Below, one piece after another: positions 21,922 to 55,191 of a stretch of DNA of 64,000 bases. Every line of letters begins with the position of its first letter. The stretch's first letter is position 1. The notes under the pieces are model-generated. The model did not search any database. It was not told the origin of the DNA and worked only from the letters and a program-made list of their open reading frames with translations. Source of the DNA: Yuukianura sp. NJ FZ-2021. Its lineage: Eukaryota. The translations under genes and the position numbers were made by a program. Location of the stretch: the NCBI GenBank assembly GCA_046563655.1, contig CM102283.1, forward strand, positions 7,006,001 through 7,070,000, in the 5' to 3' direction.

Positions 21922-21983
21922 ACACAAGTTTGGAACATGTTTGAGGCATGTTTCACACATGTATGACATGTTTAACACATGGA
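21922..21983. promoter_or_regulatory. Array of p53-family-like half-sites upstream of INTS6
   Basis: GAACATGTTT (21933-21942), one-base spacer, AGGCATGTTT (21944-21953) both match RRRCWWGYYY, flanked by degenerate copies. Sequence match only. Confidence 0.35.
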
Positions 21984-22937
21984 ATGTATTCCATTCAATT
22001 CAATACCAAACACAATACACAAAATTATGTACAAAAAATACATATTACAGTAAAAATACCCAAATAATCGAACACGTTTTAAGTTTTTTTTTCAGAAAAT
22101 AACAATAAATAAGAAATCATTACATCGACGAAACACTTTTTGCTAGGTCATACTAAAGTTAAGTCATTTGTGGATACTTGTGTAATGGGTTTTCCTAATT
22201 TCCTGGAGCCATTACAGTAATAGCTTCCCAGTCAGCATGGAATAGCCTAGAGAAAATACCATTCAACAAATAAATAGGTTTTTCATGCCATAACAGTTGG
22301 AGACACAGAGAAAAGCTTTTTCTGATGACTTATCCTTCTGTCTCCTCCCTAACATAACATAGCTTCCAGAAAAAGCAAGTTAGAACTACCTTACTACTGT
22401 AGTAACAAGCTCGCTTTCATTTTATTTTGATAGGATAATGTAATATCCGAATTGAAGTCATTGAGACTTTGTGTCTAGATGCAGAATCCGAGTAGTAGCA
22501 TGTGATACTCGTTCTCTGGAAAGCGGAGTCTGGAAAACCGGGAGTCTGTGATCCCTTAGTCCTTTGCCTCAATAGAAGCCTTAGACACGCGTCTTTTATA
22601 GAAATTGAAAACGAGGGAAAGTTTCAGTAGTTGGTTGAGGCCGGGCCAAAGCGCAGCATCACTCCACTAACCATACGGGAGCAAAACGGAGAAATGTGAT
22701 TCTGGAAAGCCACTTGGAACTGAAATTCTGGAACACCAAAAACAGCGTGCTTTCTTCATGTTCTCTGCAAAGGAAACAGTTTCTCTAATTCCGCTTCAAA
22801 ATTCACTGAGAGATCAAAAGGATTAAGCCTTTTCGTTTGAAATACGAAACCAGAGTGAAAGTTATTGAGTTTTTGGCAAAAGTCAGGATTTTTATCACGT
22901 GACATAGTGATTTCAGTGGTGACAAGGTGACAGGATC

Positions 22938-25900
22938 ATGTCCACTGTGACATCGCCAGTAAGTGATGATGGCAGTCGAGATCCGTTGCAGTATAGTCTT
23001 CATCAACCCGCTAATCCACAGCGGATGAAACTGCAGCACAGACACTCTGAAAGCATCATCAGCGTCAGGTCACTTCAGACAGACTTGGAGGCGGGACTGG
23101 GCAATAATGCTCGAATGTAAGCTTCGTGTTTTTTTCTCATTTTCGAGAAACAGATTAAAACTAACAAAAAAAAGTGTTAAAAAAGTCATTTCTTGTTTAA
23201 TTACAAAAAAAAACCTTGTACATTCCGTTCTTCTGACGTTTGTTTTTTTCTTTGGAAAGTTGGGAGAATGCAGATTCAAATGTCTAACCGAAATAAAGAT
23301 CTCACAAGAAATAAAACTTTCACCCATAAAATAATTTGAGAACATCCTAAAAATTTGGGAAAAAAGAGAAGATTTTATTATCTTTTACAACTTGCGGATT
23401 TTTTATGCTTTGGTTTGCCAAAGACTAAAATTTACTTCAAAAACTAGCCTAATCATCAAGAATTAAAATAGTTTTTTTTCACACAAAGTAAGCTGAAAAT
23501 TCATTTCAGCATTTTTTTTGCATAGTTCATCGGCTTTCACCATAGATCTAAAAACTCCATTTAATTTCCTTATATAAACTTATAAACTACTCAGACTAGG
23601 AATTTTTGAATTTGTTTATTTTTTTAGGGAAAAAGCTATCTTATGATGTACCGATTAAAAACAGAGCAGCAGTTTTGCTGTTAATAAATTTCGTTTCCAG
23701 AGTTCACTTTAGCAGAAAATGATCAATTTGTTTTTATGCTTTTCTTACAAAGTGAACAGACGTTTAGCACAAAGAAAAATACTTTGTGTCATCTGACTGC
23801 TGATTCTTCCGTTTTCTTTTCTGGAAAGGAGCCAGCAGTTCCCTTCCATTACGCTTCTTCCAAGATCCTAACTCCCCACTTTCTCTTTTTCAAAAAAGTT
23901 GAATACGAGGCCTTAATGATTTGGGAGTGCTGGTTAAGTATTGTTTAAGCTTGACACTCCCGGATCATTAGGCTGGAGTTTAGTTGAGCAATGATCTGTA
24001 AAACCTAGCGTTAAGATATACAAAACCTATCTTAAACTAAAACTTTTGTGCTGATTTCCTTTCATTTGGGAATTTAGAATTATTATGGCCAAAGTTTAGC
24101 TAAGGATTAAGACTTGAGAAATGGAGATGCTTTTGAAGTTTAAGGTTAGGCTTTAGGTTGGGGATGAGCATTAAGATAGGGAAGAGAGCTTAATGGTTCC
24201 TTTCCAAAAGTCAAGTTGGATTTGGAACAGAGTTTACCACGTACAGGAGCTTCTTCTGGAAGCTCAAGGAAAATGTCAATTGAAAATGGAGAAAGAGCGG
24301 CAAAGTTTCAATATATCGGTGGGCAATTTGTCTTCCGTCATAACGACAATGGACCAAAACTTTTTCTGGATTTTGTCTAATGGGCATCCAGAAAGGGGAG
24401 AGAAAGCCTATGGGAAACCAAGCAGTAAATAGTTATGAGCAGTAAGACGCTGGAACTGAAGTTGGATCAAGGTTAGGTAGAACTCTTGACTGACGTTAGG
24501 TAAGGTTTAGGTTGATCCGTGGACTCAAATCCTCGACAAAGCTAAGGTTCAAGTTTACTTTTTTGTGTTTTTGTTGAAAATGACAGAGTGAAAGTGGAGT
24601 CGGTAACTTTATGTTTGGAAAAGGTTATGTCTAGACTCAGATGTATGGTGACTTTCACCGATAGTAGAAAACTAATCCGTTGATTTTATCCAACCCACTG
24701 CACTTCTGTTGGGTTAACGTTAGGCTAGGTTCTGTTAGCCTTCTGTTTCTGGGCACTAGAGCCTTCAAGAGGAAACGGAAGAGTCAGGAAGTGAAAGTTG
24801 CTAAAGAGCCAGGCAGGAGCGGGAAGATCAACTTTCTCTGTCGCTCTTCAAAACCCCACTTCTCTTTCAATACAATTTGTTCCGAGACCTATCCTAATGT
24901 AATCTAACCTTAACATAACAGACATAACTACTTTCACTTGGTGTACTGGTGTACTTTCTATTCATTTTCACTTTCTCACTTTAGGGTTAGATTAACCTAA
25001 TGAAATTCAGTAAAATTCGATCATCCACTATCGCCCGTGTGATCCTTGACGACAACTTTCTCTCTTTCCTGGAAGTCGTTAGCAGTCCAATGTAACGGTC
25101 GATTAAAATTCCATTTTCATGTTATCACCAGAAACACTAAATTCAAAGACAAAATAGAAGTTGCAAAACGATTTTTAAAAAAACGAAATTTTGTTGGTTA
25201 CTCATTCCCTAATGCTTTCTCCAAATAAAACGTTCTTGTGTTGTCAAAAACATTTTTGGGGATTTTGGTTTTTTTGGTGATTGTTTCCTTTTTCTTGGAA
25301 ATTGGCTTTCAGAACCAGAATCAAATTTATTTGAAAAAACATTTCTCCAGAAAGGAATTTTTGTTGTATTGTTTTTTTCTTCGAATTTTTGAAAAATAAG
25401 TAGAGAACAAATCGATGTGAAGTATAGTTTCTAGGATCATGACTTTTTTAAAGAAAAAAAGCAGGATAAAGAAAAGTTTGAAAAGTTTTGAAAGAAAAGT
25501 TGAAGAACTGTGACACTACTTTTCCCTTTTGCTTGATCAAAAGAGAAAGTTAGTTTTTTTCTTACTAAAAGATGAAGAAGAGTGTCGTTATCTCGAAAGT
25601 TACTTTAAGTGCTATTGAAATGAAAATGGGCATGAAAACATGAAAAATTAGCACCGATTATGGTAATCTGAAGCCCATCTTGTAAATTTTCTCTAGCCTC
25701 TAGCCTTTTTTCATGTCAACAACTTGCGACGAGAGATGAAAACAAAAGATAATAAATTTTGAATCAATTTTTTTTTTTAAACGCTAAACTCTCCCCATTG
25801 TAAACAGGTTTTTTGGAAATTTGGCTGTTATTTGAACCTTGCGGTTTTTCGGACTTTCACCTGTGGGACTCTCTTTAATGTGTACAGGGGCTCATCTTGC

Positions 25901-27004
25901 AGCAGAAAAAGAGGTTATAGTTGGAGAGACAGTGACAAATGGAGGATCCCACGTCCCACACATTATCCCACTTTCACTTGCCTCAAAGTTAGGCTTTGTC
26001 TCCAGCATTAGAAGTGGTCTATAAGCTCAAACAGGGACGCGGGAAGACTCAATTTCCAAATTAAATTGTTCCACAAGCACAGAGTTATCCTTCACTTTAC
26101 ATCCATTATCCCTTCCTAGGACCTTTCACTACAATGTTTTCACTTACAACGTCCCTGCTCCTTTCAAGTCTATTCTCTCTTAGGTTTTCGTTCCAGAGCG
26201 TTGATTTAGTTAGGACTAAAAGCTAGGAGCTCCACCAGTCCGTGCCAATTTGGATTCAAGCCTAAAAGTTTTCCTAGAGTTAGAAAAAAAGGCGGGAAAG
26301 TGAAAAACTGGGCGCGGAAGAAAGCTCTTGTGAGCCAGTTCTGAAGCTGTCAGCGACCATTGACTGCTTTGACAGCGGCGGGATTTTGGCAGAATTCTGA
26401 CAAACATGTCAAAACTTTCGGCAAAAAAAATTTTATGGGGAAAGTAATCGAGGTGTAACTAAATGTCTGACTTACAGAAAACGCCGTAAAAACAAAACTG
26501 GAGTTTGAAAGATGTCAAGATATGACTAAAAGTCTGACTTGACAAACAGTCAGGGAAAACTAATAGTAGACAGAACTTGGAAAGCTGTCGAGGTGCGACT
26601 AAAAGTCTGACTAGTCTGACCAAACACTTTCCGTTTTTAGACAACTGAAACATGTCTCAGCTTTCACTTTTACCACACAAAACTTCCGGTTTTTGTCTAC
26701 ATTTTTATCTCTTTTGTATAACTTTCATATTAAAATTTGTATAAAAAATGAGAAACTGCTCTTGAGTCCTCTTGAATGTATTTTTCAATTCTTTTTTGAT
26801 TTTTTTGAAACAGAAGAGGAAGCCGCGGGAGGGGATCCGACATTCCGCCCACTGCAACGTGGAGTATTGCAGAGACTGTAGACGTTGGTCCAGGGAATGA
26901 GCGTGTAGCTTTTATAGTCGGCACGGCTACTGCACTCATCTTCCTAAGTGCTTTCATCCTCATCGCCGTCACGCTCAAACTTACGCCCCAAATTGACGAA
27001 AAGT
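22938..27004 (+). CDS. Variable unit A of single-pass membrane protein locus (exons 22938-23116, 26814-27004)
   Basis: AT|gtaagc joins cag|A in phase 2, giving ...NNARIRGSRGRG...ERVAFIVGTATALIFLSAFILIAVTLKLTPQIDEK, ending in phase-1 donor T|gtaagt. Confidence 0.75.
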
Positions 27005-30000: not shown

Positions 30001-30226
30001 AAATCTAAGAACTACTCTGCTTAATCAGCAATAAATTAAGCTTCAAACAGGTTTCTGGAACTCAGGTTCCAGGTTATGGGCGTAGCGTTTGAAATGGCGT
30101 CGTAGAAAACCATCTCATACGGGTAGTTGCGATGAAGTTTTAGCGAGATCCCAACACCTATTTGCACACCCAGCAGCTAAGTTTTTGTTAACGTTTTAAG
30201 TTTATGCGGATTCCACACAGCTTTGC

Positions 30227-31358
30227 TCATCCATTGAAATTAAACTTGATCTCCGCTCGACAATTTCCTTTGATGTCTTGACGTGAACCCGGTTTACACT
30301 TCAGTTTAGGAATGTCAAAGTTACTCTGCTCGGAAACTGATGGTTCAGCACAGCTTGGCTCAAGGGAGTCAGCAGTGAAAATCACTTTTTCATACGTTTT
30401 GCCACACAATGAACTGTACTCGTCCCAGAATACGCACTGATTCTTAAACAAAACTATCGTTCGGTCATTCTGAACCGGGCAATCGCGTTTTTGGCACTTG
30501 GGATGCTCCTTGTCGTCAAAAACTAGCCATTCGTCTTCCTTACAGTATGCCTAAAGGCAAAATTCAAAAATTAGTACAGTGTAGTTTAGAAATTTAGAAC
30601 AACTTTTTAAGTCAAGTTAATAGCTTTTTGCTGGAGAGTTATTAGGAGAGTTGCGCTCTTTCGGTGGAGTTTTTTTGGGAGTTGGTGAAAGGCGTAGGAG
30701 TTTAATTTAGTTTAGGCATATTCTAGGTTAGACTAAGATAATTAAAAACGTAGTGTAACGTGCCTGATCGTAGATTGGGTAACAGGATCCAGTGGATTCA
30801 TGGAAGACGAGTGGTATTTCTGCATTGTAATCACAGTCACATTCTCCATAGACTTTATTACCCTCTTGGGCGTAGAACAACATGTTGTCACCGCAGGGTC
30901 CTCCTCTCGTACCCGGAGTGTAGCATTTCCCACTTGGAACATGAAACCGATCCTTTGGGTTGACGCATTTAGGCGACGCAGGACTGTAACGCAAAATGAG
31001 AACAATGGATTTTTTGAAAATGTTGTTTAGAAAAAGTATTTTAGAAGAGTTTAGTTTTTGAAAATGTAAAATAGGAATCTCACCCTGCGCGGAACTGGAG
31101 AGGCTGCTCTTGTTCCTCGAAAATTATTCTTCCAGTATCGACACTTCCTAAACGGAATCCGAATTCTGGTGTTTTAGTGGATTCCGTCGCTTGACCTTTG
31201 ACCTTGAGCATTTGTTTGACCTCGGCTAAAGTGTCAGGGTCAAGCGTGAACTTGGGTTTTCCAGTTGGTCTGGGCTTGGCGCGAACTTCTGGAAGTGGAT
31301 TTAGTACGCCTAAAATGAATAACACTACTACAGCTCTTAGAAAAGCTGAGTTGAACAT
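30227..31358 (-). CDS. Secreted cysteine-rich protein, DUF4789-like; nested antisense in an intron
   Basis: Exons 31358-31084, 30983-30764 and 30550-30227. Signal peptide, then CYTPGTRGGPC...GECDC...GSCYPIYDQAYCKEDEWLV...CKPGSRQDIKGNCR, the Cys pattern I associate with arthropod DUF4789 proteins. Confidence 0.8.
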
Positions 31359-34022
31359 GGCGAATTTTTAAAAATTTTGAATATTGAATTTGAACAAATT
31401 GGGAGGTGTTGCTCTAAGCTAACTTTTGTGTGAAATGGTTAAGGAAATGTGAGGTTGTGAAAGTTGGTAAAACGAGTCTGGTCAGATGAAGAGCACAGAC
31501 GTTTTGTTTTATGTGACTGTGACCTTAACAAGTCCGAGAAATAAATTACTTGACTTGATCGAGAAGCGACGAGATTCAATTGAATCGCAATTCCCAGAAC
31601 TGAATTTTGGCAAAATTTCCAAAGTGGATTAAGTGAGCATTTTTGTTGTTGAGGTTAAGAATCCGGTTTGACAAGTTTTGAAGATTCTTGGAAATTGGCC
31701 CAAAAAACGTGCTTAACTTTTTACGCTTCAAAACCTTACAAATTGTATTTCTGTTTTTTTCATATTTGCGATTTATGTGAACAAATTTGTGCTCTCTTGG
31801 AAAATTTTAACAAGTTACTTCATCAACTTTAATAAACTTTTTTTTGTGCATAGAGTTATTGAAAACTTCGTCAACAAGTTTACGACAACTTTTTAGTTTG
31901 ATAATTTTTCTGCTTTATTTTTTTTTCAACTAACTTCATTTTCAATTGTGTTTTGTATAATTCTTTCTTAGAAAATTTAGTCAGCAAGTAAAACTGCGTT
32001 AGACGCGTCAAGAAAATATTTCTTCGTAATTTGTCAAAAATGTTTTTCAAAACTTTTAGGGCAAACAAACGAAAGTTGAAATATGAACAAAGTTTGTCCA
32101 CAATTTTGTTGGTTAAAATTCTTTAAAAAAAAATTAAAATGTTTAGGAAAGATGCGAGGAAAACTTTTCAAAAACTGTGAAGTTTTTGTAGAAAATGAAA
32201 ACTCGTAATTAATAATTTCAAGAAAAACGCAAACAACTCGTTGTTTGGCAGGGTTAGAGGTCTTTGGGGGAAGGTTTCGGGGGAAAAGCAGACGTCTTAA
32301 AATTTCCTTGTTCAAATGAAGAACTTGAACAAAAGGGCGCACACGTTCCCGCAACTTTCTCGGCTTCTCGAGAACAAAACTTTTATTTTGCTTCCTAACA
32401 AATTAGCCAAGCGTATTTTCTCATAAAAACGAAACAAAACTTTTTGTTTGCGTTTTAACAAGGAACTTCGAAAGGGAAGGAACAAAGTACGGGCCAAAAG
32501 CAACCTAACAAAAGAAAGCAAAGAAAAAACGAAAATACGACAAGGTGAACCCGGAAAATTTCAAAGTCGGACAAAACCAACGCAACAAAGGGGCAGTGAA
32601 AAAATGGCTGTTGCGTGTTTTAAAACAATTTTGAGAAGCTAGAAAAGTGGGAAATTGCGTACAACGTTTTGAACAGTTTTCTAAAATTGAAAATTTGAAA
32701 ACTTTGTCTGAAATTTGGCTAGTTTTTAATCAATTTGTTTGGTCCCTGCCTTTTTTCATATTTCTGATGTCAATTCCAGAAGGTTTGACAGTGACATGTT
32801 TGGAGCAAAAACAGTAATGAAGAAAATTTCAAACTTTGGCGCTATTTTCAAATGAGAACTTATGCTAAACGTGGTTACTAAATTCCAAACATGACGCAAA
32901 AGGTTAACTTATTTATGACAAAAGTTTAAGAAAAGTTTGAAGGAGAAAATAACTTTTCACTTTTCAAAAGCTGGCCACACTTTTCTGTTTTCCAAATTCA
33001 AAATTAACTCCAAACCACTTTAAGTAAAAGTTGCCTAATGAACTTAAATATTTTAAATTTTCCTCCGAACTAAATTTTTTGTACCCACCGCTACAATTAC
33101 AATGTACATCTTATAAAAATTGCCGTTCCGTGGCAATTGTCGTGGAATATGGACAAGTCCTAAAAACAAATGGCAGAGTGACATGAGTCTAGAACTGCCG
33201 GGGTTTTGTAAAAGAAATAAAAAAGCGGGAACAATCAAATGTCTCCATTTCAAACTTTGCCGCGTTGTGTAAGTTCAGAAAAAAGTAGGATGTTGTAAGA
33301 TTTTCTTTTTATTCTTATGATGTCCCTGGAGACTAATAGATCAGGATGAAGAAGAGCCAGACAATGGGCGCAGTGGTGCTTCTGTCGCAACAACAAAAAA
33401 GTTTCTGCGCAGAAGTAAAGAAACAAAATAAGCGTAATTACCTAAATGTATAGTTGGGAATAAACTACAATTTAAACAACCTACGCACGCCTACAGATGG
33501 AAAACTTCCAAAATCATTCTAATGGACTCTAACCATCAAAATTTCATTTTTCTTCTCACTTTTTCAAAATGTTTGCCTTTTTATAAAAGTATTTTTCACT
33601 GCGGGGGCGTGTTGTTTTGCAAAACCCGAAAAAATGGAACAAACTTTCTCTTTTTTATGTTTCAAAATTCCACTTTACTCAAATCATTTTTCCCGCTTTT
33701 TTTTAAAAAAAAGTAACAGCGGGGACTACACTGTTACACTCTGCACATCAAATCCAACCACCCACATAATCCTCTCTTGGCCTAGTCCATTTTCTCCAAC
33801 TTTTTCGAATTTTTTTTTTTGCATTTTTTTTTTGCAATTGAGTTCCAGACGAGTGTCGGGAGCAGCAGTACTTTTAGTGTAACAGTCTATGAATTCAAAT
33901 GGGGCGCCATTTGTTACAGTCATTTTCAATTATGGAAAACCTAGCCTTGTATAGTTCGGCTTCAATTTCACTCTCAATTCAATTTGGTCATGGATGGGAT
34001 GTAAGAGGATTAAATTGGTGGC

Positions 34023-34078
34023 GGGAGTAACTATTTTAGGTGGAGGGAGTAACTATTTTAGGCGAAGGGAGTAACTAT
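34023..34078 (+). repeat. Three tandem copies (~22-23 nt) containing GGGAGTAACTA
   Basis: gggagtaactattttaggtgga gggagtaactattttaggcgaa gggagtaactat. The same core occurs singly near 1017 and 37865. Confidence 0.8.
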
Positions 34079-34659
34079 GTGTATACAAAGTGATTGTAAT
34101 TCTGATACTCCCGTTACCGCTTTTTCTAATGGGACTCCCATAACTCAGGATCTTAATTATTAATTTTAGTTCTCACGGATTCTGTTTTCACCTGGAGACG
34201 TTACTAACGTATCGTAGTGGAATTAAAGAGACACAAAGGGAATTAGGGCTTGAGGTTCTTTCTCAGTTTTAGTTTGTATGGACACGGAGTACCGACCGCT
34301 GGTAAGCTCAAGAGCTCACGGCCTTGGGAGAAAGTTCGGTGTTCGGAGAATTCCGGTACTTTTGGTGAGACGACTCGGAAGAATATCGACCCCACTGCGA
34401 GTTGTGTACTCTGAAAACCAAAGAGATCTTCCAGCCTTCGCTGGAAAAAAAACCGGACTGGAGTGTGCTTCGTTCCAGCCGCGACGACGACGACTCCGTA
34501 GCGCCTGTAACATTCTGCGCCTCAAGTTATTTCAAACCAAAAGACTTTCTCTCCCACGCCAGATCTTCCAGGAATCTGGAAGGCCCACTTTCACTTTCAC
34601 TTTCAGTCTTACCGTAGACATTGCATGGACTTCAGCTCCAGGAAAAGCCCACGCGGACA

Positions 34660-37600
34660 ATGGAGGTAACCGAACAGACGCTGGAGACTCCAGAACCAGA
34701 CCAAGGTCAAAGGTCACCCCCGCCTCCACCAATCCCAAAACACCAAACAGTGGAACAAGATCCAGAGGTCATTGACCTCAGTAACTTGGTCAGTGCAGTC
34801 AGTCCATGTCCAACGTACAAGGACATGGCCACTTGGACAGTGGAAGACGACATGCCCAGTCCCATGGACTCTTCAACCCCTCTGGACAGTCCAGATCTTA
34901 GCCAATTGCGAAGGTTCAAGCAGTACGCAGTCGATTCCAGTCAAGTCGTCATGCCCCTGCCGCCTCATCCCTATTTGAATTCCCCGACAGAACTAACTCA
35001 TCCGAATTCCGTCGATCCGAATTCGGTTCTTCCGCCTTCCAGCAGTTCCACTTGCTTCACAGTCTCTTCTCAGCTACAGTCAAGAGAAGCACGACTCTAC
35101 GAAAATGTTCCACCACTCCCCTCAAAAACTGGAATTGAGTCACTGGGACTCATTTTTCATCCACCAATTACGTCTTCCCATCCCTCACCACATGGTAGCC
35201 ATTGTCATGGTCATCCACCAGAGCGCGAAATTTCAAACAGTGAGTTTCTAAGTGTCTCAGATTTTCTAAACGGAGGAGGCGGAGGTGGAGCGGGATTCGG
35301 CGGACCGCCGTCGAGGTCATCCTGGGTCGATTCTGGACGGGAAAGTTTAAGTTTTGATGGTGAGTCGGGCAATACGCCAAATAATTCCAATTCAAATAAT
35401 TCCAATTCGTCAAGAAATGTTAACATTGTTGGAAGTGGAAGTGGCGGACCATTTTTCTTTCAACATTCTTCGTCACATGACTTTTCTCCGTCACATCATA
35501 CACCATATCCATCAAAGTTGAGGTCAAACGGTGACGGACGGAAGAGTCGTCGTGACAGACTCGTCAGACAGAAACATGCAATTGATGAAAATTTTAGTTC
35601 TTACGGATTTCAGCCATTGACGACCGGATCAGGGCCGTCTCCGACTGGTACTGCCGGAGGCGGAGTCAACAGTATGTGTTCATATCTTGCAGTGCCGTCT
35701 CCACGGAGAACTGTTTTGTCTTCTGGAATCGCTTCCAGTGTTGTCGCTGTCGCGGCATCTCCCATAAGTCTCCATAGACATCCAAATAGTCAGCAGTTAC
35801 TTTTACAAGAAAATAAGAAAACGAGAGGACTTATTCCAGGGTCAGAGAGCCCTTACTCTTTTGGTTGTGCTACGGAGGAACGTGCGGGGTCAAAAGGTCA
35901 CCATCATTTTGGCCATACTGACTCACATTTACATGTTGGTGGATCGTTTAATGAACATGGACGGATTCATAGGATGGCTAGGAGCCCTTCAAGGGGCCAC
36001 ACAAGCAGCAGTGCAACGAGTGGCTCCAAGTACAAAGTTCAACATAGCAGTGGCTGTGCTAGGTACAAACCGGACAACACTTTTGACTACGGAGAACTTC
36101 CGAGTCATCAAATGTTTCCGAAGAGACATCTTCTTCCGACTCGCCAATTTTCTCAACCCTATGGTGCCAATATCATCAACACGCAGGCCCCACTTCATCA
36201 GCCCAACAATCATCGTTCCTTTCCAGCTAATCTCCTAAGGTAAGCCGAAATTTTCAAATTTTCAAAAAAAAATCGCAAAAAAAGTCAAGCTAACGTAATT
36301 TAAGACCGTCAAAAGTTAAAAATTCAAAAGTCGCTTGCAGATATCTTCGATCAATCAAATCGTTCAGGCTTAATTTAATATTTTAGAGGCCACGCTTGCT
36401 CAAAAGCTCGTGACGAGTACAGCGCGTGCCGTTTTTTTTTCATACGTTTTGGAATGTGACGCTAAAAATGGAATTTCTGGACGCTTAATTTGACACGAAA
36501 AAGAATGGTGGCGGGAAAGAATAAATTGAAGTTGATCCAGTTCGATTGAATGGAGGAGGTGCTTACAGAATAGTCATTTTTCTCACTTTGGGATCCTAGC
36601 AGATGGTGGCTCGACTTGAAGTTGATGGTGGCTCAAATATAGGTTTGACGGTGGTGGCTCTATATAGTTGATGGTTGATGGAAGTGTCACGGAGACCGCT
36701 TAACGTGGTGTCCAGTCTCTATTCCCATGTCATTCACCACACCAAGGCCAAACAAGATTGAAAATGGATTTTTGGGTTCGTCAGAAGAATTCGGAGGGAA
36801 ACTGGAAATAAATGAATTGGATTCCAGCTTCTGCCCACCATTTTCACCCTACTTTATTGGATTCCAGGAAAAAATTGAATACAGAAAATGACGAGAAAGT
36901 GCGTACGACTCACTGAACTCCGTTCTCGAACTTCATTTTCAAATTTAGTCACACGCTATTTCCAAAAATCCGCTGCGTACATGTGTCACATCCGTCCAAC
37001 TCTATTTCATACAAAGACGATGCTGTAGTTCCGCTTTTTTACATTTTGAAATCTCAATTTGCCCTCAAATAAGCGAAACGTGTTGAGCAGTGAACGTTTT
37101 GTACAGTGCGGTCTAAAAGTCAAGTTAAAAAAAAGAATCTCAAAAAACTTAAACTTATACACAGGCAAACGTAACAAAAACAAGTTCGTCGTTTTCTCGT
37201 TTTGAAACGCCAGTTAAAAAAATTATGTACTACAAAATTAAGTCTCTTTACTAGCGGCGAAGTTCTCGGAGACAATTGTCCTTCAATTTGCAAATTCTGA
37301 AACTTGTAAACAATTTTTTGAAATTGGCGCGTGAAATTTGGAAATCGGAACCACAAAATAACTCACTTACGTGACCTGTTCTGTGGAAAACACATTCTTT
37401 TTTTTTTGAAAGTGTTAATTTCCATTTGACAAAGACGTGCACTGTGCATGTGACTTGTACTGAAGATGTGAAAACAAGATTTAGAGATAGCGGAAAAGAA
37501 GTTCTCTTATTGGTGGAAATGAGTCATTTTGAAGTTGGCTCCAATCCATTACTTTCTTTTTCCCCGCCAACCGCTATGTTCAAATTGTTGTGTCCAATGG

Positions 37601-40600
37601 ATCTCCTGTTGTGCTCTGAGGAAACAGAACTTGTCGATTTTGGGACATCCCCTGCGTGATTAATGTGCCAAGTACGTAGCTTTCGTCCAAAATACTTTTC
37701 TTCATCCTGATTCCGTATTCTACAGGTTTCTTTAAAAGAAAGTTTCTTTTGACACACCGTGTACATCTACCTTCCAGAAATACAAAATACATGTATCCCA
37801 TGTTACACCAGGATAACCTTCCATCCACACCTTTTTTGAAGCGTAGGCCAAAAGTCTCAGTGGAGGGAGTAACTACTGCCTTCAAAATCGGAACAAGAAA
37901 TATGGACGCTAAGATTTATTGCCAAGCGATCCAGGGAATCCTTTCATGCTTCCTACGAACGTAGTTCAGAAATTTTGTGAAAAAGTGAAAACATACAAAG
38001 TACTACTAGAAGGTCGAAGGGCGTTGGCTCGGTGGTTCGTTGAAGGAAAATATTTGTAGCTTCCCTAGGTTCGCCTCCCACGTTCCTCCTAAACTTTTTT
38101 TGACAAAGTAAAAAATTGATTTATAAAGTCAGAAAATCAATTTTCAATTTTGGAGAAAACATGAGTGGGGCTAAACGCTTTTACTTTCACTTTTGTTTTT
38201 AGGACATTTGATTGATTTTGGGAGAAAGTTTGAAAATTTTATGCGCTCTTTTCAAAATGTCATGTTCGATGTGCGTCTCGTTTTATGTCAAAATGACAAG
38301 AATTGAGTTTAGGAACAAAGTACTTTTTTATTAGTGGAGTTTTATGCGGAACTTTTACTTTTTGAATGTTTCCGAATTTTTTCTTTTTGCTGAATGTTTC
38401 CGCAATTTCCTCGGTCGTTTGCAAACAAAAAGATCTTTTATGCGTATTTTATGACAGTTTGATTCCTTGTTACTAGGATTGTTTGAACTCATCTTTTAGG
38501 CAAAGATCGAAAATGTACAGCATGTACCAACATGACAAACGTGTTTTTTTCTGAAAAAGGGTTTCGAGCTTTTGTTTTGTAGGCTTAGAAACTCTTCGGA
38601 TATAAAAAATCAAAAACCAAAAAAGATTTTGTCAAAGTTCTTAAAAGTTTTGATGTTTTGATGCGAAAAGGAATTTTATGAATATTGGAATTCTTTTCCT
38701 CCACACAAAGCTGGGAAAATTCGGGAGATTTTTTTTCAAGAACCTTATTTTCAAAATGGATTTCAAAATCACTGCGTATTCACGCTCCCTTTTTCCTGAC
38801 GTCAACCAAAAACACATTTTTCACTCTACTTACTTAGGTTAGGTTCATCTTTATGTTATGTTCTTGTGGCTTGAAATCAATAAGTCTCGGATCTTCCTTC
38901 CGTCATTTTGCGTACTACGTAGAACACACATCTAAAAACATGAATATTCAAAGTTCCATTTTCTCTTCCCTAATAGTCAAATCAATTTTCCATTCTACAG
39001 AAAGGATTGGATTTGGGTGGAAGGAGACAAAAAAACGCAGATTCGATATGCTGCTGATGGCGTCATCCATTGTTATTTTCCAGGAAGTTCCATTAGGACC
39101 CTCACTAAGGGGTCCAAAGGGCCCTCCTTACAGAATGTACTGGATGCTGGATCTTCTAGAAGTCCCGGGTAGTTTGAGGCTAACGACCCGAGGAGCCACT
39201 TCACCGCAGAGTTTGGGAATTGAGGTTTTGAGGAACTTCGGGAATGAAATTTGTGACTCTCCGTCTGTCCCGTAAGCTTGTTTGTATTCAAAGGCATTTC
39301 GGATGTCGGCATTCGCACTTGGATTCCGGATGCTCGGAAAGCGTCTTTCTTGTTCCTTAATTTCATGGTTTCATTTGCTTCGTCATTCAAAAGCACAATT
39401 CGAACCATTTCCTGCCTCGAACGCACCAAAAGTTCAAACGAAATGCGGGAAATGCTAATTGAATTGAGGAAGAACGTTTTCTCGTGGCTTTTCATCATGT
39501 CAATTCTATAAAAAATTATGCGTCTATTGTATGGATTAAGGCAACCGAGAAAACGAAAAACTCAAGATTGAAATGCTGGTCAAAACGTAGCTTCTCACAA
39601 AAAAAATTTTTTTTGGAAAACAATTTTTCAAAGTTAACAAACTTTTTATATTGTTACGTTTTTTCTTATTTGTGGAGTTTGGAAAATTCTTTGGAAATTT
39701 TTTGTCATGTTTATGTTTTCTTTCAAGAATTTTTTTTTTAAATGAGTTGAGTTCAACTTTTTTTTTTAAATTGGAGAAAGCTGATTGCGCTTATTTCAGT
39801 TCGAAATCAAATTGGATTTGTTAAGAAGTTTGATCAGTTTGGAAATGATCGTCTTTCAGTGAAAGTATAAAAGGAAAAACTGAAATTTCCAATTTCAGTT
39901 TTCCTCTGAAAAAAGATGAGTTAGTAGACTTTTGTCATAATGATGCTATGTCCATCCAGGTCGTTTTCCAAAATGATCGAAGGAATTGATCTTGTCTCTG
40001 CTGGCCAGAAAGGAACGCTGGACAGAGAAAGTCCATTACAGAAAGCGAACAGAGGTTGGTTCTGGAAGGGTCCAGCAGTGTTATGGAGAAAGTAGAGCAG
40101 TCTGATCTGATTCCCAGTACTTTGTGTCATCTGACAGAATCACTCAGAAGGGGATTTCATCTTATTCCAACTTCAACTTTTAGGATGGTTCCTCTGGCTA
40201 CCATCAATTCCCACTAGCACTTCCGCCATGTTACGTCCATCGACAGAAGTGGTTACATTGTAACTTGAGGTCAAGGGGACACACTTTCCAAAAAAAAAGT
40301 TGTTTTCGGAATTCGACTTTTTAAAAACAAAAGTCAAAATTGAAAAACCGGAACTCGAAAAAGAAAGATCATTTGGCAAAAATGATTCAAATGCAAACGG
40401 CAAAAAATTGAAAGAAAAGAGTGAAAGTTCGAAGAATGAAAATTGGCGAATTTTTTTTTTGCAGGCGCATACTTGACGGCACAAAAATTACTGAAGAAAT
40501 TTTGAAGGCGGGAAAAATAATTTTTGAATTTTTGTTACGTTTTACAGTGGTGTTGCTCCACGTTCATGTTCCATGGGTGACCTGACGTCAGCAACTGGTG

Positions 40601-41062
40601 CTTCTCCGGGTAGTCTCAACAATGGAAAGTCCGCTCAAGGTGGATGCAGCGCCGTCGCAGAATTTCCACATCACGTCACCATTCCAACCACTAATGCACC
40701 TTCAACGCAATCTTCCGCGTTAGCTTCCAACGGTTCTCACATGGTCGCAAGTCTCCCGCTTCCTCCAGCCACTTCCGTCACCTACGAGTTCAACCTAGCT
40801 CCAGTCTCCGGTACTCTCGCTCCAGGCTGGCACCTCACCGCTGTTCAACGCGGTCTGGCCACTGCCGTTCCATTGGCTGCAGCCGTTGCACGCCGCCGCC
40901 TTCCACGACCACGCCCCATTCGACCACGGTTTGGCTTTACGGACAAAAATGAAGCTCGAAGGGCCAAGTGCACGATAGCCGTGACAGCTCTAGGTCTCCT
41001 AGCAATGAGCATGCTACTAGTTGGAATCACGCTTAGGCTGGCTCCACTTATCGATGACTTGG
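34660..41062 (+). CDS. Variable unit B of single-pass membrane protein locus (exons 34660-36239, 40548-41062)
   Basis: Long Ser/Pro/Gly/His-rich ORF ends AG|gtaagc (phase 2) and joins tttacag|T in frame with the 40573 ORF. It ends RRAKCTIAVTALGLLAMSMLLVGITLRLAPLIDDL with phase-1 donor G|gtaagg. Start taken as the first in-frame ATG. Confidence 0.8.
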
Positions 41063-44000: not shown

Positions 44001-44430
44001 GAATCCATAAAAGCGGGAGTTTTTGAAAAGTGTGCGACTTTTCAAAAAAAAAAGTGGGAGAGGAAGACTTTAGGACTTAAAGATGGTTATAGAAAGTGAC
44101 GTAGTTGTACGTGGGTGAGTGATAGAAGACAGAAGGTCCCACCGCAGCCCCACCGCTCCCACCTATCTCCAAGGGTGGAAATAGTAGTTACCGTGAAGGT
44201 ATTAAAGTTTAAGCGTCATCAGGCCACGCTCCGACTTAAGTTTTTTAGCCGGGTATCTTCAAAAAATCTACGTGAGAAGACAGGAAGTGAAGATTTTGGG
44301 AGAAAAACTAACAAAAGAAGCCCCAAAGTCAACAGAAAGTGAAGATCGTAAAGTTCCTTATACTGTAACATACAATTTCAAAAGTTCCCTCGCTCTCTCC
44401 ACATACTCGCTGGTGCCCATCAGCATCAAA

Positions 44431-44907
44431 ATGCATACTAGCTCATCACTTGTTCTGGAACAGAGTCCACCTACTACTATAGTCAATGGTTGTGGAGCTG
44501 CTGCAGAACGGCCCAAATTATTCAGTACTTTCGGAGAACAGCTTCGTCGAGAGTCCATTTTCAAACGGTTGCGCTTTCGCACAACCAATTCACCCCAAAC
44601 ACCTCCATTATCCCAACTGCTCTTTAGGAATCTCCACAGTTCCAAATGGACTAAACGTTTTCAAAATTTTGAAATTTTGAAAGCCCCACAGGAGAATTTT
44701 TGGATAAAATCGGTAGTGGTTGAGTGTAAACCGATTTGGAGTCAGTTGAACTACCCGTCTGATCTGCACTGGGCTTTCCGAATGTTTGTTTTGGCAGTGG
44801 CGACTGGGTGTGCAATTTTTGCAACTTTGCAAAATTTTCTGGGACTTCCAGTCACAGTTTGGACGTATCCAAACCACTTTATTGTGGAGGTGGAAACATT
44901 TTTGTAA
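44431..44907 (+). CDS. Putative single-exon, single-pass membrane protein (~158 aa), nested
   Basis: ATG at 44431 (caaaATG) within a 211-codon open frame. Basic, Ser-rich N-terminus (RRES) and hydrophobic WAFRMFVLAVATGCAIFATLQNFLGLPVTVW near the C-terminus. No splice or homology support. Confidence 0.5.
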   Translation: MHTSSSLVLEQSPPTTIVNGCGAAAERPKLFSTFGEQLRRESIFKRLRFRTTNSPQTPPLSQLLFRNLHSSKWTKRFQNFEILKAPQENFWIKSVVVECKPIWSQLNYPSDLHWAFRMFVLAVATGCAIFATLQNFLGLPVTVWTYPNHFIVEVETFL

Positions 44908-47663
44908 AAAACGTGAAATTTCAACAAAATCAATTCAAAAAGTTTCAAAAAGTCAAACTTTTTTTATACAAGTTTTTGTTTTAGAATTAGACAAAATTGG
45001 AGTAAGCCATTGGCTTGATGATTTTTTTTGTTTTGGAAAAAAGTGAAAGTGTGAAACAGAGAGAATTGTACAGGAGTTGTGATTTTTCTTTTTCTTTTTT
45101 TAAAATTTGAAAAGTTCAGAGTTGAACGTGTCGTTGTTTTGTTGCCGCTACTTTTAAAAAAATAATCAAACCACTTCTGTAGCTTTCGTGCCGATTCCTT
45201 TTTTGTTACGGTGAAGATTAACCTCTGGAGTTGTGAATCTCATCTTTATTTGGTCTAAACTTTAAGATTGAAACGGGAGTTTTTTAGTGTCTGGGGAAGA
45301 CTTTTTCCAAAATGGAATGGGAAAAGCTATACAAAGCATTCAGAACAATGGAAAAACACACACAGAGTTCTTCTGGAAGATTTTTCGTCCGAGGAACCAT
45401 ACAGTACTACTATACGCCAGAGTGAAAATCAATACAAGAAAACCATCTTCCATTTTCTTATTTTGCTTTCTAAAACTTCTCCAGCCTCTTTAGACGCTCC
45501 ACTGAGTCCCATGACTTTGTTTCTTTCACATTTTTCAAACAGTTTTCAAAAAAGACGTCGAAACTCTTCCGTGTTTTGACATCCGGAGTCTACCAAAATC
45601 CTTTCTTTGTAGTTGGTGGTGCTGGTACTACATTTTGGAAGGAAATTTATAAGCCAAAAACAGTGTTTTGAACAAAGCCAAAACACTTTAGAATTTATTC
45701 CTTTTGTTTGATATTAAGAAACTTCTGAAGTAAGTTGTTGACACATGGACGTAGAGAGAGAAGAAGAAAGTGCGGGATTTACAACCGGTGGGAAGCGGAT
45801 TGGAAGTGAATTATTTGAACATTGGATGTAATTGTTCAGAACAGGAAAAGTTGGAAGGGGATTTAGAACAAAACTGGAGAAAGCGAGTTTAAACACAAAG
45901 GTACGAACGGAAAGTTTTCATGTCAATTTCAGCTTATTTAAAAAAGTAGTTTCCGAAAGAGGAATTCGTAAATCTTCAGTTCTCATTGGAGAGAGAAATG
46001 CAATCTTATATAAAACTCTGTTTCTATTTTCACCAAAACAAAAATTGAAAAATTCGAAGCACTGTTCAATTTTTTTCTGAATAACAAAGTGCAATCCAAA
46101 AATTAGGCTTTTGTAAAAAGCTAAAGTGAAAGTGCGGAAATTGTCAAATTTTGACGAAATCCAAAATTAGTTTTTAGGTTCGGTGCGTGTCTTTCAATTT
46201 TATTTTGGCGAAAGTGCATAATTGGCACGAAATTTTTTAGCTGATGAAACACCGAAATCAATTTCGAGGATAAAAAATATGAAAAGATACAGAAATGAAG
46301 CCTCTATCCAATTTTTTTTTGAAAAGATGCAGTTTTGACGCAGCAGTGTCGTCAGCACGAGCGATAAGTGAAAGTATCAAGTTTCATTTTCCACTTTCTC
46401 TTTTGAGGTACTCACAAAAGACGAAAATATAATTTTTTTTTCGTCTCGCAGAATCCTTTGATCTTTCGTTTCCTTTTGTACAAATCGTAACTCGGGAAAA
46501 GGAAAGTATGAAAAAAAGAAGAATAAAAGAAAATTCAGTTCGGTTTTCATTTGCACACAAAATTTAATGTAAAAGGAGAGGGATAAGGAAGTAATCTTAA
46601 AGAAGACGTCGACGCACGACATTTTCTTGTTCACAAGAGAAAGTCGCGTGCACGCACAATGCAAAATGCATTGTTTGCTTTGCTCTAATGCTTACTTACG
46701 AGGATCGATTGGGACAAACTTTTCTCCCGCCATAGTTGTTCCGGTGATGGAATCTTATCTAAACTGCACGTAGAATGTACTAGCACTAGTGTGTCATGGA
46801 CTTTACTTAAATTGAAATCATGATGACAAGAGAATCTAGTAGGATTACAAGAAAGGGATTTTTTGTGAAAAAGTTGCTTAAGAAAACACTTTGTCACTGA
46901 AAATTGTTTCAAGCACACTTCCACGAAATCAATTTGTGGATGAAATCAAAGTGGAGACGGAAGACAGACAGCGAAGAAGTTCTAAATTATTTTAGTGGTT
47001 GAATTATTTAGAATTTTCAGTTACCTTTTAGGTTTTTCTATGTAGAACTCATAGAGTTCGAAACTTTTTTTTTGTTCTTTTTGAAAAAAAGTTTACAAAA
47101 TGGAAAATTTCATTTAGCTTTTCTCTATCACATTCGAAACAAAAACTTTTGCAATTTTGAATCCGTTTTATGTTAAGAGATCAAAGAGAGCAAGAGAAAC
47201 GAAATGTAGAACATGCCCTAGAGCTTTTCAAAGAAAAAGTTATTGACAATTTTGTATTTTCCTGGTAAAGTTGGTTTAGTAGCAGAGAATTTTTGTGTTT
47301 TTAGACAAAATGGCAACGCTAATGCACATTTTTCAGTCAGGAATACAAAATTTTGGACCGTCTCGTAAAAACACAAAATTTCCTTGTCAAAATACTTAAG
47401 TTTTTGTTAAATTTTTTCCTCACTCAAAAGAATCCTAAATAATTTTACTAACAGAATTCTGTTCCTAAGGTTTCGAGTCGGAATTGTGTCACTCATGTTT
47501 AACAAAAAAAAAACATTATACACTCAATTTCAATTTTTTTTTTTGAAAACTTTTGAAACTTTTTTCGCTGTTTGAAAGTCACCACACGAAACGAGTCGTC
47601 CAGTCGTTGTTTCATTATCGTCAGAACAGTATCGTTCTCAACTTCGTTTCTTTCCTGTGCACA

Positions 47664-48165
47664 AGTAAGTTCTCAAAAATGAAACAATGAAATTTGAAAA
47701 TCAAAATTTTGAAAAATCGTAGTTCTGAATTTGATTTGGGTTCTATGCAGTGTCGACGGAACAAGTAGGCAAAGCCGAGAGCGGGAATGTCAAGGCAGGG
47801 GACCCGCTGAAGCCCGGCGGTGTTGCCATTATTGCTCATCCAGACAAAGAGGCGAATCGTGAACGCAAATTGTCACTCATCTCCAATGAACCACTTCTTC
47901 CACAACCAGAAGCCGAGAAGGCTTTTGTCTTTGACCACCCTCTGGTCAAATATAATTAAATATTATTACAATAAAATATGTTATTGTATTATTATATTTT
48001 TTTATGAATTAGGTCATGACGGACTTCTTCCACACCATCGCAGCACTCGGAATTGGCGGCTTGATCTTTCTTGTGATCATCCTGATTTGGGTGTTTGTTG
48101 GTGACCCCAAGTGGCGCTCCAAGGACAAATTGTGGGGAGCTGAGCACTACCAACCAAAAGACTGA
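47664..48165 (+). CDS. Small single-pass membrane protein (115 aa), nested; start codon split by an intron
   Basis: A|gtaagt (47664) plus gcag|TG (47751) forms ATG. Exons 47751-47944 and 48013-48165 give MSTEQVGKAESG...RKLSLISNEPLL...TIAALGIGGLIFLVIILIWVFVGDPKWRSKDKLWGAEHYQPKD. Confidence 0.75.
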
Positions 48166-49446
48166 ATCTAGTCGCTACTCAACCAACTTACAACAAACTA
48201 CTCACTTTCCATTTCAAAAAACATAATTTGCTGACTCTTTCAAAATTTCGAGTTAAGATTTTGACACTTTTGACCTCAATAACAGGCTCCAATATCATGC
48301 TTCTACGAAAAAAAACAAACATTTTCTTCAGTTTTATTCTAGTTATACAAGTACTACTAGTACTTATACTAGTACAAAAATTTTTCAATTTAAACTTTTT
48401 TGTCAAAATTCAAAAAACGTTTTTCTCCTTTTCAACTGCTTTGATTTTCACACCATTTTTTGCAAAATCTATATAATTTGTGACCCTCGCCTGATGGCAA
48501 TCTTGGCTCGCGACGGCACAAATTGTCTTTTTCACGTCGCTCATGCGCTGTTTTTTTTTGCATTTCTCTCTCCAGTGAGAACGGGGCTTTAAGTTAATGG
48601 TAATGATCATGACAATCCGCCTGACCCACTGCGCCCCTTATGTGTATCTCATTTCAAGTTAGTTTCAAATTCAGTCATGACCATATCATTAGAGATCGAA
48701 TCTCTCTATTATGAACTTAAGAACACTCAAGTGGAACGGCCCCACCATGGTGGGGCCACTCTGCCTCTGATCCTCATTGAATTTCATTTGTTCCATATCT
48801 ACACTTATAGACTCTTCAGAAGAAGGAGAAAGTAGAGCAGCACTCCTTCTGCAGCTTTTGTTCCACTTTCCCCTGGCAAAGGAGAAAGCCATATCCATTT
48901 TGTCTCAAAAAGTAAGTCTTTTAGCCCAAATCTCATGGGATTGGAGTTTCAAAAAAAGAAAAATCTGGAGCATAAAGTTAACAACGGTGGAGAGAGGGAC
49001 TTAATGAAACTAAGTTAGAAAAAAGTCTCTTTTTCAACAGTTTGAAGATTAAGTCTCTCAAATCTCCAACGTTTCTAATGTCAGAAATAATGAAGTCAAT
49101 AATGGAAAAATGAAAAATGAAACGGATTAGAAAACTTTTCCATTTTTCCTGCTTTTCTGAGTATAATAAGAGAAAAGTAGGAGATTATTTCGCTAGTCCT
49201 AAAAACTTAAATCCTTGAAGGTAAAAAAGAGAAAACGAAGGAAGAAATTTCTTTTTCTAGAATTTTGAAATTTCTGACTTCCTAATCAGCTCAATAATCA
49301 AATGAAGCTTTTTCGACTTTCTCTAACTTTCTTTTGTAGGAACTTAATTGAGTTTGAACTTTTTTTGGCAGTTAGGAGAAACTAAGTTTTTTTGGAACAG
49401 AAAATTCAAGAATTTGGAAATACTTGGAGTTTGAGCTTCTGTAAAA

Positions 49447-50860
49447 ATGGAGGAAAAATCAAAAGTGGATGATTATGATGGAGATGATGAAGAGGGCAAG
49501 ACGAGCAGTGATGCTGAAGAGGAAGTTGCAAGGGCTGGTGGGTTTGAAGAGAGCGCTGACGCTGAAACGAGCGCTGGAATTCAAAAAAGGACCAACTTTC
49601 AAACAGCAGTGGCTCTTCAAAATAGCGGAACTGCTGACATTGAGGTTGATGAGAAATCAAAGGAGGAGACTATTCGGAAGTTATTAGAAGAAACTTTGGT
49701 TGTTCCGCGGGAAAGTTCAAAAGGGGCAATTGACCACGTTTTGCCGAGAGAACATGAAGAGGCACTTGATAAAACCCATGTCAAAAAGAGTTTTGGCTTT
49801 GGAAGAGTCCTGGACAAAATGAGGTCAACGACCTCGGCAGCATCGGGGCCCTTCAATGGTCGAAAAAGTGACAAACCCAGAAAAATCGCTGTAAATTTTA
49901 GAAGAACTCAATCGTTCGAACCGGACATGGCCACCAAGCGATCCAGAGAAGTTGACCAAGCTGAAACTAAGGTCAATATGTTTAACCCAGATCAAGGTCA
50001 AACAAACGTCAATGCTCCTAGTCAAGGTCAAGAAAAGGTCAATGACCCTGGTCAAGGTCAAGACGAGGTCAAGCCACCGATGCACAACTTACCAAGTCTG
50101 AAAAGACCTCAATGTCATTCCAGAAGCCAATTCGTTAAATCCGATTCAGTCACCGATCCGCTCGGATCGGCAATTTCTCCGCTTGGCCGACAACGCAAAA
50201 TTTCTGCTTCGATGAGCAGACTTGCTGTAGGCGTAACTCACGCCGCATCATCACTTGATATCAGTCGTCGTGCCTCTACTGGCATGGGCCACCATCAGCT
50301 CCACCATGGTGGGGCTGGTGGCTCCGGTTCAACCGGATCTTTCAAAAATTTCCGTCTTCAACATTATGACTCTCCCAATTCATCACTGTCACCCAGCCCA
50401 TCACCTTTAGTAAAACAAGATCGCGCTGATCCTGCCACGTCAAAACGCTTGTACCTCCTCCAGCGTTCGGGAACAGTCGGAAATACGGCGGCGCAAGATG
50501 GAAGCAGACTCAATCCGCTTAGTGCCAATCGGTCAGCATCGGAGCGAAGTGGCACAGAGAGGCCGAAGCGCGGTCGCAGATGTGGGAGGCCGATGGTTCG
50601 AGACTCGTTTTATCGTGGGTGTCGCAGTAACTCCTTTGCATTTAGTATGGACGTGAAGAGTAGTGCGCCACTGAAAGATTTACCGCCAAGAGAACAACGG
50701 CATCGGAAAGTAGGTTATGCCATTATGATTTGCTCATCCCTTCTTCTCAGTTTGGCTGTTCTCTGCATTGTCATTTCGCTACACTTTTCACACGAGAGAC
50801 ACAAGGCCGCTGCAAATGGAAATTCAAATGTCACGACCTCGCCAACTGTAGAACCAGAAC
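49447..50860 (+). CDS. Variable unit C of single-pass membrane protein locus (unspliced ORF runs to 50928)
   Basis: 493-codon ORF, acidic then Ser/Arg-rich, with TM RHRKVGYAIMICSSLLLSLAVLCIVISLHFS. Phase-1 donor C|gtaaga at 50860/50861. The ORF is well supported; use of the donor is inferred. Confidence 0.75.
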
Positions 50861-53800: not shown

Positions 53801-54763
53801 TTCCATGTCATTGTTTCAAATGAATTGCTTCTAACGGAAAAGTTTCTAAAATTTACTTCTAAAGAAACCTATCCCTTGACATTATTCGAAACAAGAAGCA
53901 ATTCTCCTTTAGAATAAGCAATTCAGTTTTTGAACCAACGGTGTGCTTCCGTTCTGCTCAACTTGCGTTGTGACAACACTGAAAAAAAATTGTTGACGTG
54001 GATTACCCTTACCTTCATTTTCGAAAAGTGAAAAAAAATGAAAAATTCCAAAAACATTAAAAGGGGCGGGGGGGTTCTCATCAAAATTATTTTGTTTTTG
54101 CGGAAAACGTTTGGAAATGGCTTAAAGATTCCGAATTCCGAATTGCGGGAAAAAAAATTCCGAAAAACTGGTAACAAAAAATAAGTTTTTTTGCGGATCC
54201 GAAAAATTTTGGGTCCGGATTGAAACTTCCAAAAATCGTTTTTGGCTTATTGTATGAAGTACATTTACACGCCCTGAAGCTAGAATTTATGTAGAGTACT
54301 CGGAAGTTGGAAATGTTTGAAACTTTGTTTTATGTCGCAGATAATGATCGTGGTGAAAGTCAATTTAGATCCCATAATTCCTAGTGCTTTCTCCTTACAA
54401 ACACGAAAAGGAGGAAATGAGAAAAGTAAAAGAAGGAAATTGGTGGAATGGGAGTAGTTTTTGTAATTTAATGTTAATTGTGTTCACGTTCTGTTCATAG
54501 TTAAGAGAAAGGTCAAAGGTCATTAATAAAATTAAAGTGGGGTTCATGTCCTCTCCAGACGCAAAGCTAATCAATCTCGGGCGACATTCCAAAGTTTTTG
54601 CACTTTTCCTTCTCCATGCTAGTCGTGTTTTGCTAACATAAGCTTTAACTTTCTAAGCATTTTAGCAGTTTTGTACAATTTGCAAACTTTTTGCAACATG
54701 TAAAATCCTAGTGAAAATGAATGGCTAAACTAATTGATTCTGATTTTAATTACTATTTTGCAG

Positions 54764-55191
54764 TACGGAAGGAAAATGAAGATCTTTTGCGCTCCATCGT
54801 TCAAACTCCATCGTCACTCAACGTCTCATTTCCAGCTCCAACGTCGTCCATCCCACTGTCAACGTCATTCCCGCCACCGCAGCCACCAGGTGGAGCTCCT
54901 GCGGCCCCACCAGAGTCACTTCGAGAATCCATTCAACCTAACAATATAATTAGCATTGGTAGTCTCCATGTCCAGAAGCATCGTGGTACAAGACAAACGA
55001 CTACAACGTCGGCCAAGAGCAGTTTAAAAAGTTCCGCTGAAGCTACGCAGCCCCGTTTTAGTCAAGAGGAGGTCAAAGGTCAAGCAATTCCGCAATTCAA
55101 ACCAAGTTCAAATTCAAAAACGGAGGATTCAAAAGAAGTGCTGGAAGACAGAGATGAAGTTATAGGACTTGAAGTTACGCGCTTCGGTTAA
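54764..55191 (+). CDS. Shared terminal (constant) exon: xRKENEDLLRSI + Ser/Thr/Pro-rich tail
   Basis: Strong acceptor tactattttgcag|TA (phase 1). Open to TAA at 55189-55191. The ORF-track portion upstream of 54764 is AT-rich and intron-like. Confidence 0.75.

Follow-up and report, generated by a model that had tools for sequence, protein, structure and literature searches.

Background

GCNT2 is a type II Golgi protein. Its vertebrate gene is described as having tandem variable 5′ exons with their own promoters, each encoding an N-terminal transmembrane (TM) segment, that are spliced separately to common exons (PMC1885805). For DPP6 and DPP10, type II auxiliary subunits of Kv4, alternative first exons are reported to combine a shared exoplasmic part with differing cytoplasmic N-termini (PMC3973911), and promoter-chosen variable 5′ cassettes joined to constant 3′ exons are the design given for the clustered protocadherins and UGT1 (PMC1885805) and for the chelicerate sDscam genes (PMC9258826). 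Here we describe a locus at positions 22938-55191 of a 64 kb stretch of DNA from Yuukianura sp. NJ FZ-2021 (assembly GCA_046563655.1, contig CM102283.1, positions 7,006,001 to 7,070,000 of the forward strand; 64,000 nucleotides, referred to below as the window), in which three plus-strand coding units, termed A, B, and C, may be spliced to one shared, or constant, terminal coding exon at 54764-55191. We put the probability that all three units share this exon at roughly 0.45.

If this reading is right, the region would be one complex locus with three 5′ units, each with its own start codon and probably its own promoter. Each unit would encode a long disordered cytoplasmic N-terminal region with phosphorylation-type motifs, followed by a membrane helix and a phase-1 donor, and all three would be spliced to the single terminal exon, which would add a short, Cys-free, Ser/Thr/Pro-rich exoplasmic tail in a type II orientation. 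The predicted outcome is an exchange of cytoplasmic domain and membrane anchor while the outer tail stays constant, with A and B as two-exon units whose paralogous TM exons would be used one at a time.

Such a locus would resemble GCNT2 in that the anchor is carried by the variable 5′ part. The variable exons of GCNT2, however, are single first exons that are highly alike and encode most of the folded catalytic domain, whereas the units described here are dissimilar and disordered, A and B have two exons each, and the downstream sharing is predicted. DPP6 and DPP10 have a large folded ectodomain and encode the TM segment in their common exons, while here each unit has its own TM helix and the common part would be a 142-residue low-complexity tail. 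The variable exons of the protocadherin, UGT1, and sDscam loci encode the ectodomain or the substrate-binding part and are many in number, each a true first exon that lacks an acceptor; in contrast, this locus has three units, a variable part that would be cytoplasmic plus TM, and internal acceptors. A 5′-terminal variable exon lacking an acceptor, as those clusters have, is not what we find in A and B, where the TM exons start at acceptors. An earlier annotation made from the letters of the window, the sequence-only reading, had drawn an analogy to the variable first exons of the protocadherins, against which the internal TM exons of A and B speak. It had also called the arrangement the reverse of protocadherins, for which the descriptions of GCNT2 (PMC1885805) and of DPP6/DPP10 (PMC3973911) provide precedents. 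GCNT2 already provides a case of variable 5′ units that bring along a type II membrane anchor, and the present locus, even if the shared-exon reading is true, would follow a known general design in an orphan family.

If the exon does serve all three units, we would have an invertebrate case of a promoter-selected swap of cytoplasmic domain and anchor on a constant tail. It would be an addition to the short list of variable/constant loci with the anchor in the variable part, for which GCNT2 is the precedent, in a family annotated nowhere, and would offer a way into this orphan family, whose TM and juxtamembrane segment is strikingly conserved. If the units are merely tandem genes, they are an ordinary small gene family. 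Under either model, what can be put to practical use now is the corrected gene model, as the region lacks annotation.

Results

Three coding units and a candidate constant exon

Unit A consists of a putative first coding exon at 22938-23116 (ATG at 22938; 59 codons plus 2 nt; donor AT/gtaagc, phase 2) and a TM exon of 191 nt at 26814-27004 (acceptor acag/A, phase 2; donor T/gtaagt, phase 1). The first exon was the best of four ATG-started phase-2 GTRAG exons in 21001-26813 and is the least certain part of the gene model. Unit B has the same two-exon form, with a first coding exon at 34660-36239 (ATG at 34660; 526 codons plus 2 nt; donor AG/gtaagc, phase 2) that encodes a disordered Ser/Pro/Gly-rich region, and a TM exon of 515 nt at 40548-41062 (acceptor ttttacag/T, phase 2; donor G/gtaagg, phase 1). 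The coding exon of unit C at 49447-50860 (ATG at 49447; 471 codons plus 1 nt; donor C/gtaaga, phase 1) encodes a disordered N-terminal region followed by a conserved juxtamembrane segment and TM helix. The candidate constant exon at 54764-55191, also on the plus strand, begins at the acceptor attttgcag/TA, in which the TA completes the split codon, and continues for 141 codons after that codon to a TAA stop at 55189-55191, with an AATAAA poly(A) signal at 55391-55396, 200 nt past the stop.

The exons were joined by script to give frames of 798 nt for A, 2523 nt for B, and 1842 nt for C (265, 840, and 613 codons), each of which starts with Met, contains no internal stop, and ends at the constant-exon stop. 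The donors of all three units and the acceptor at 54764 are in phase 1, so that the junctions are compatible and the frames open, as the sequence-only reading had stated for the same three donors. Across the whole window, GTAAG occurs 43 times on the plus strand, and in each unit no GTRAG donor other than the phase-1 GTAAG lies past the helix before the frame reaches a stop. Because the motif is this scarce and stands alone past each helix, chance is ruled out as the explanation for the pattern of donors and phases. Unit B is open for 697 codons before its phase-1 donor and must therefore end in some functional exon.

Coding potential was scored with a codon log-odds table trained on 1,926 codons of neighbouring open-reading frames (ORFs), most of which have Pfam matches (INTS6, OATP, astacin, Fcf2, DUF4789, and an NBR1-like domain). 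Every one of the six proposed exons had a positive in-frame score, between 0.12 and 0.22 per codon, and a negative score in either of the other frames. The first exon of unit A, for example, scored 0.18 in frame compared to -0.19 and -0.51 out of frame, and the TM exon of the same unit 0.132 compared to -0.33 and -0.12; the first and TM exons of unit B scored 0.172 and 0.217. For the controls, 133 other ORFs with a length of 70 codons or more, the mean was -0.035 (sd 0.096), and only two of them exceeded the constant exon (0.176). This null is conservative, since a number of the highest-scoring controls are likely to be true exons of the genes nearby. Stop-free runs of 156 codons, the length of the ORF that holds the constant exon, are expected about 0.2 times by chance in the window. 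In-frame stops precede the ATGs of B and C by 14 and 4 codons, respectively. These results support the units as real coding exons with their own start codons.

A 173-codon ORF at 34254-34775 (plus strand) lies in a GC-rich stretch and overlaps the start of the first exon of unit B in another frame. An ATG at 34278 together with CTG/gtaagc at about 34300 may mark an upstream mini-exon or 5′ untranslated region (UTR) of B. Within the 4.3-kb intron of B, both strands of 38838-40139 carry ORFs of 72-162 codons with log-odds of 0.09-0.15, possibly another nested gene or a repeat. Pfam gave no meaningful match for the ORF at 34278 and none for the two ORFs of this intron that were scanned, 38838-39272 on the plus strand and 39076-39561 on the minus strand.

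Relations among the units

Comparison of the TM exons of A and B by BLASTP gave a match with E = 2e-4, with 12 of 29 residues identical and an alignment that stops one residue short of both exon ends. The two exons enter in the same phase (2) and exit in the same phase (1), and they appear to be paralogous, with the same exon-end register. Both lengths, 191 and 515 nt, are 2 mod 3, and inclusion of both exons shifts the frame, which then closes at codon 136, so that they are usable only one at a time. On these grounds the pair would qualify as homologous, frame-enforced mutually exclusive exons. A window-wide similarity search found the N-terminal regions of the units to be unrelated to one another. 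A tblastn match of the A TM exon at 59052-59198 was weak, contains a stop, and was rejected.

Protein features and topology

Each product has a long low-complexity N-terminal region (32-41% Ser, Thr, Pro, and Gly), one helix, and a short tail. A single 19-residue window with a Kyte-Doolittle mean above 1.6 is present per protein, with best values of 2.53 for A (2.44 for its TM exon), 2.24 for B, and 2.82 for C, which leaves no signal-peptide-like segment in any of the three. By a simple hydropathy and charge count, as opposed to a dedicated predictor, the net charges of the 15 residues before and after the helix are +3/-3 for B, +3/+1 for C, and -2/-2 for A. A type II (N-in) orientation fits the sequences of B and C, while the pattern of A decides nothing about its topology; the basic residues that had been noted before the helix are thus present in B and C (net +3) and not in A (net -2). 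The constant exon encodes 35% Ser, Thr, and Pro, no Cys, and one NVS sequon, which had been noted before and lies at residue 19 of that exon.

None of the five exon products searched matched a Pfam-A family at E up to 1. A feature search (Atlas) with residues 300-475 of unit C returned only unnamed 'hypothetical protein' clusters from arthropods and rotifers, the best at 0.91, and a weak lead to SLC3A2_N at 0.77. The earlier failure to assign a family was borne out by these searches, and the best explanation of the sequences is that the proteins belong to a lineage-restricted, unannotated family of single-pass membrane proteins. A keyword search of the literature, which is weak evidence of absence, found no description of the family or of such a locus in arthropods.

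Relatives of unit C and its upstream region

Among 5.8 billion proteins, the only relatives of unit C were P0006, which is 41% identical with 83% query coverage, and P0007, which is 51% identical with 45% coverage, and a profile search with the three sequences returned the same two relatives only. Conservation in these proteins is clearest for the juxtamembrane segment and helix and extends to the region around the N-terminal Met, a Ser-Pro run, and a number of basophilic Ser motifs, and P0007 begins at the same Met as unit C. In L001, the genomic contig behind P0006, the orthologous exon ends C/gtaacg, with the same phase and base as in unit C, and the likeness between window and contig is lost downstream of the exon end. 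P0007 reads Arg at the exon-end position, which is what unspliced read-through of C/GT would be expected to give. A constant-like exon was not found in the 2247 bp of L001, a contig that stops 520 nt into the intron.

Upstream of the unit C ATG, alignment with L001 shows conserved blocks at 49086-49365 (plus strand), including a short upstream ORF. Because the frames relative to the ATG differ between the two species, the blocks appear to be non-coding and are likely to represent the unit's own 5′ UTR or promoter region. The upstream ORF starts MKSIM in both species, about 350 nt before the ATG of unit C (49086-49106 in the window, 133-151 in L001), and is a possible translational control element. 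A conserved mini-intron in the same region is also possible (119 nt compared to 121 nt), with one conserved block lying within it, and unit C may carry an additional leader exon.

Evidence for and against a shared terminal exon

The conserved phase-1 donor of unit C, together with 54764 as the best phase-1 acceptor downstream of it, argues strongly for the join of C to the constant exon. Throughout 27008-56000, outside the unit exons, 54764 is the top combination of a phase-1 acceptor and an ORF, and no second copy of the constant exon was found in the window by tblastn at E up to 10. For A and B, a join to 54764 is only a weak proposal, favoured by their paralogous TM exons with common entry and exit phases, by the long open frame of B, which has to end somewhere, and by the lack of a second copy of the constant exon in the window. 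Of the shared-exon interpretation put forward in the sequence-only reading, the coding units and open frames hold and a collinear protein is excluded, as set out below, while the two-exon form of A and B speaks against the protocadherin analogy.

Several observations weigh against sharing by all three units. All splice joins are predicted from the genomic sequence alone, and use of the constant exon is unsupported by conservation, as a phmmer search against 1.84 billion representatives found no real homologue of it and none of 665 candidates among longer proteins received a score in a word search. The protein collections likewise yielded no spliced homologue of the locus. The two phmmer matches obtained (E 1e-4 to 3e-4) were to internally repeated, unrelated proteins and were judged spurious. 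A shared phase 1 does not discriminate, being expected of tandem duplicated genes, which would inherit it. Since the TM exons of A and B start at acceptors and need an upstream coding exon, transcripts of A would have to skip the B TM exon and possibly the C exon, and a join of B to the C exon at 49340 runs into a stop at codon 701, within three codons of the junction. Unit C resembles A and B only weakly and is not demonstrably paralogous to them, with hhalign probabilities against the unit C profile of only 0.8% and 2% for the two units.

The introns implied by sharing are 27.8 kb for A and 13.7 kb for B. These would be exceptional for this genome, judging from the introns of the neighbouring genes (1-22000 and 56368-56790), which appear short by ORF spacing; introns of 3.7-4.3 kb are required in the locus under any model. 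The first part of the intron behind each donor was also compared with the last 1-2 kb ahead of 54764 for docking/selector pairing. Global duplex energies, a poor test, were -281 for A, -308 for B, and -248 for C compared to -270 ± 24 for controls (n = 60), and the longest exact complementary runs were 13, 14, and 13 compared to 11-13 in controls (n = 35), so that neither measure revealed a pairing signal.

A candidate private exon between units B and C adds to this weight. At 47751-47959 (plus strand), the acceptor ttctatgcag/TG opens 69 codons that end in a TAA stop at 47957-47959, with an AATAAA at 47970, 11 nt past the stop. This exon is in phase 1 and in phase for both A and B, has a log-odds of 0.186, and yields frames that stay open to its own stop when joined to B (767 codons) or to A (192 codons). 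The earlier statement that A and B have no convincing private terminal exon is therefore not quite right. On the other hand, a GTAAGT donor (CACAA/GTAAGT, exon end 47664) stands 86 nt upstream of 47751, and by eye its last A and the TG of the exon form an ATG across the junction, so that the exon may instead be the second of a nested micro-gene.

Weighing the alternatives

The most serious alternative, which we consider unlikely though well short of negligible, is that the units are tandem paralogous genes of which only C uses 54764, while B and perhaps A end in private exons that have diverged beyond recognition, with 47751-47959 as the candidate for B. The features of that exon and the two open frames it gives are what this explanation asks for; a common donor phase would pass to duplicates, C is preceded by a conserved region of its own, and the internal acceptors in B and possibly C speak against long-range skipping. 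The constant exon also evolves too fast for homologue detection, which would make diverged private copies invisible to the tblastn search of the window, a further consideration against sharing. However, A is followed by no private exon candidate of like quality, the best being one of 32 codons at 29870, the ATG-creating donor suggests that 47751 may belong to a micro-gene, its peptide shows no similarity to the constant exon, and its log-odds, one such score among 133 control ORFs, is at about chance level. Partial sharing is rather improbable. In this case, B and C would share 54764, and A would be a decaying or unexpressed relic, or its first exon would feed the B TM exon. Unit A is indeed short, its first exon was chosen only as the best among four candidates, its charges set no topology, its join needs the 27.8-kb intron with a minus-strand DUF4789 gene inside it, and its first exon joined to the B TM exon and the constant exon gives an open frame of 373 codons; the A TM exon is nevertheless intact and coding-like, carries a consensus GTAAGT donor, and resembles that of B to the exon end.

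Two further explanations carry very little weight. That 54721-55191 is a stand-alone gene of 156 codons, with its ATG directly after an upstream stop and the units ending elsewhere, would account for a stop-to-stop ORF that opens exactly with the ATG at 54721, but the 14 codons before 54764 are an AT-rich pyrimidine tract ending in a consensus acceptor, and unit C needs a downstream phase-1 exon, for which none is better than 54764; we regard it as highly improbable. The order of the units on one strand would suit a single collinear transcript and protein, one of the outcomes that the sequence-only reading had named as its own refutation, but such a protein is excluded. The TM exons of A and B together run out of frame to the stop at codon 136, a frame from B into the C exon closes at codon 701, the ATGs of B and C are closely preceded by in-frame stops, and P0007 starts at the Met of unit C, all of which leaves room only for a non-coding read-through transcript.

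A fuller form of the shared-exon reading would make this a small, arthropod-lineage 'inverse protocadherin' locus, in which three promoters drive different disordered cytoplasmic signalling domains, each with its own helix and these helices partly paralogous, onto one mucin-like outer tail, the A and B TM exons being mutually exclusive across 13.5 kb and a nested gene. We hold this elaboration to be doubtful. If it were true, the product would be a transmembrane adaptor with a fixed outside and an inside that changes with the promoter used.

Other features within the locus

Between units A and B, a minus-strand gene at 30227-31367 encodes a Cys-rich protein of secreted type with a DUF4789 match at the cut-off (E 6.5e-6), and under the shared-exon model this gene sits inside the 27.8-kb intron. 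A nested minus-strand gene of this kind fits an arthropod-like genome, arthropods being the group in which DUF4789 is typically present.

The possible micro-gene around 47751 would span 47579-47959 (plus strand) and consist of a short exon, the 86-nt intron, and a 70-codon ORF; the ORF at 47753 had no Pfam match. Immediately downstream, a 49-codon ORF at 48016-48165 (plus strand) follows an acceptor-like aattag and encodes a small single-pass membrane peptide with basic residues past the helix. The DNA at its start resembles 47885-47910. A DUF7657 assignment for this ORF (Pfam E 0.023) was below the cut-off and not meaningful.

Further upstream, the ORF at 44206-44907 (plus strand) is stop-free for 233 codons, which by a rough estimate has a chance of about 1e-3; ORFs are present on the opposite strand as well, and Pfam gave no match. 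Despite a phase-1 acceptor at 44249, it was discarded as a private exon candidate of B, since its codon log-odds is near zero (0.008) and its Atlas recognition (1787, best 0.77) is not protein-like. It is perhaps a decayed mobile element.

Neighbouring genes

The locus is flanked on its left by an NBR1-like Ig domain identified by Pfam at 5028-5447 (plus strand), an astacin gene at about 11.5-13.3 kb (minus strand), an OATP transporter at 15.4-17.6 kb (plus strand), and INTS6 at 18.6-21.0 kb (minus strand). On its right, Fcf2 is encoded on the minus strand at 56368-56790.

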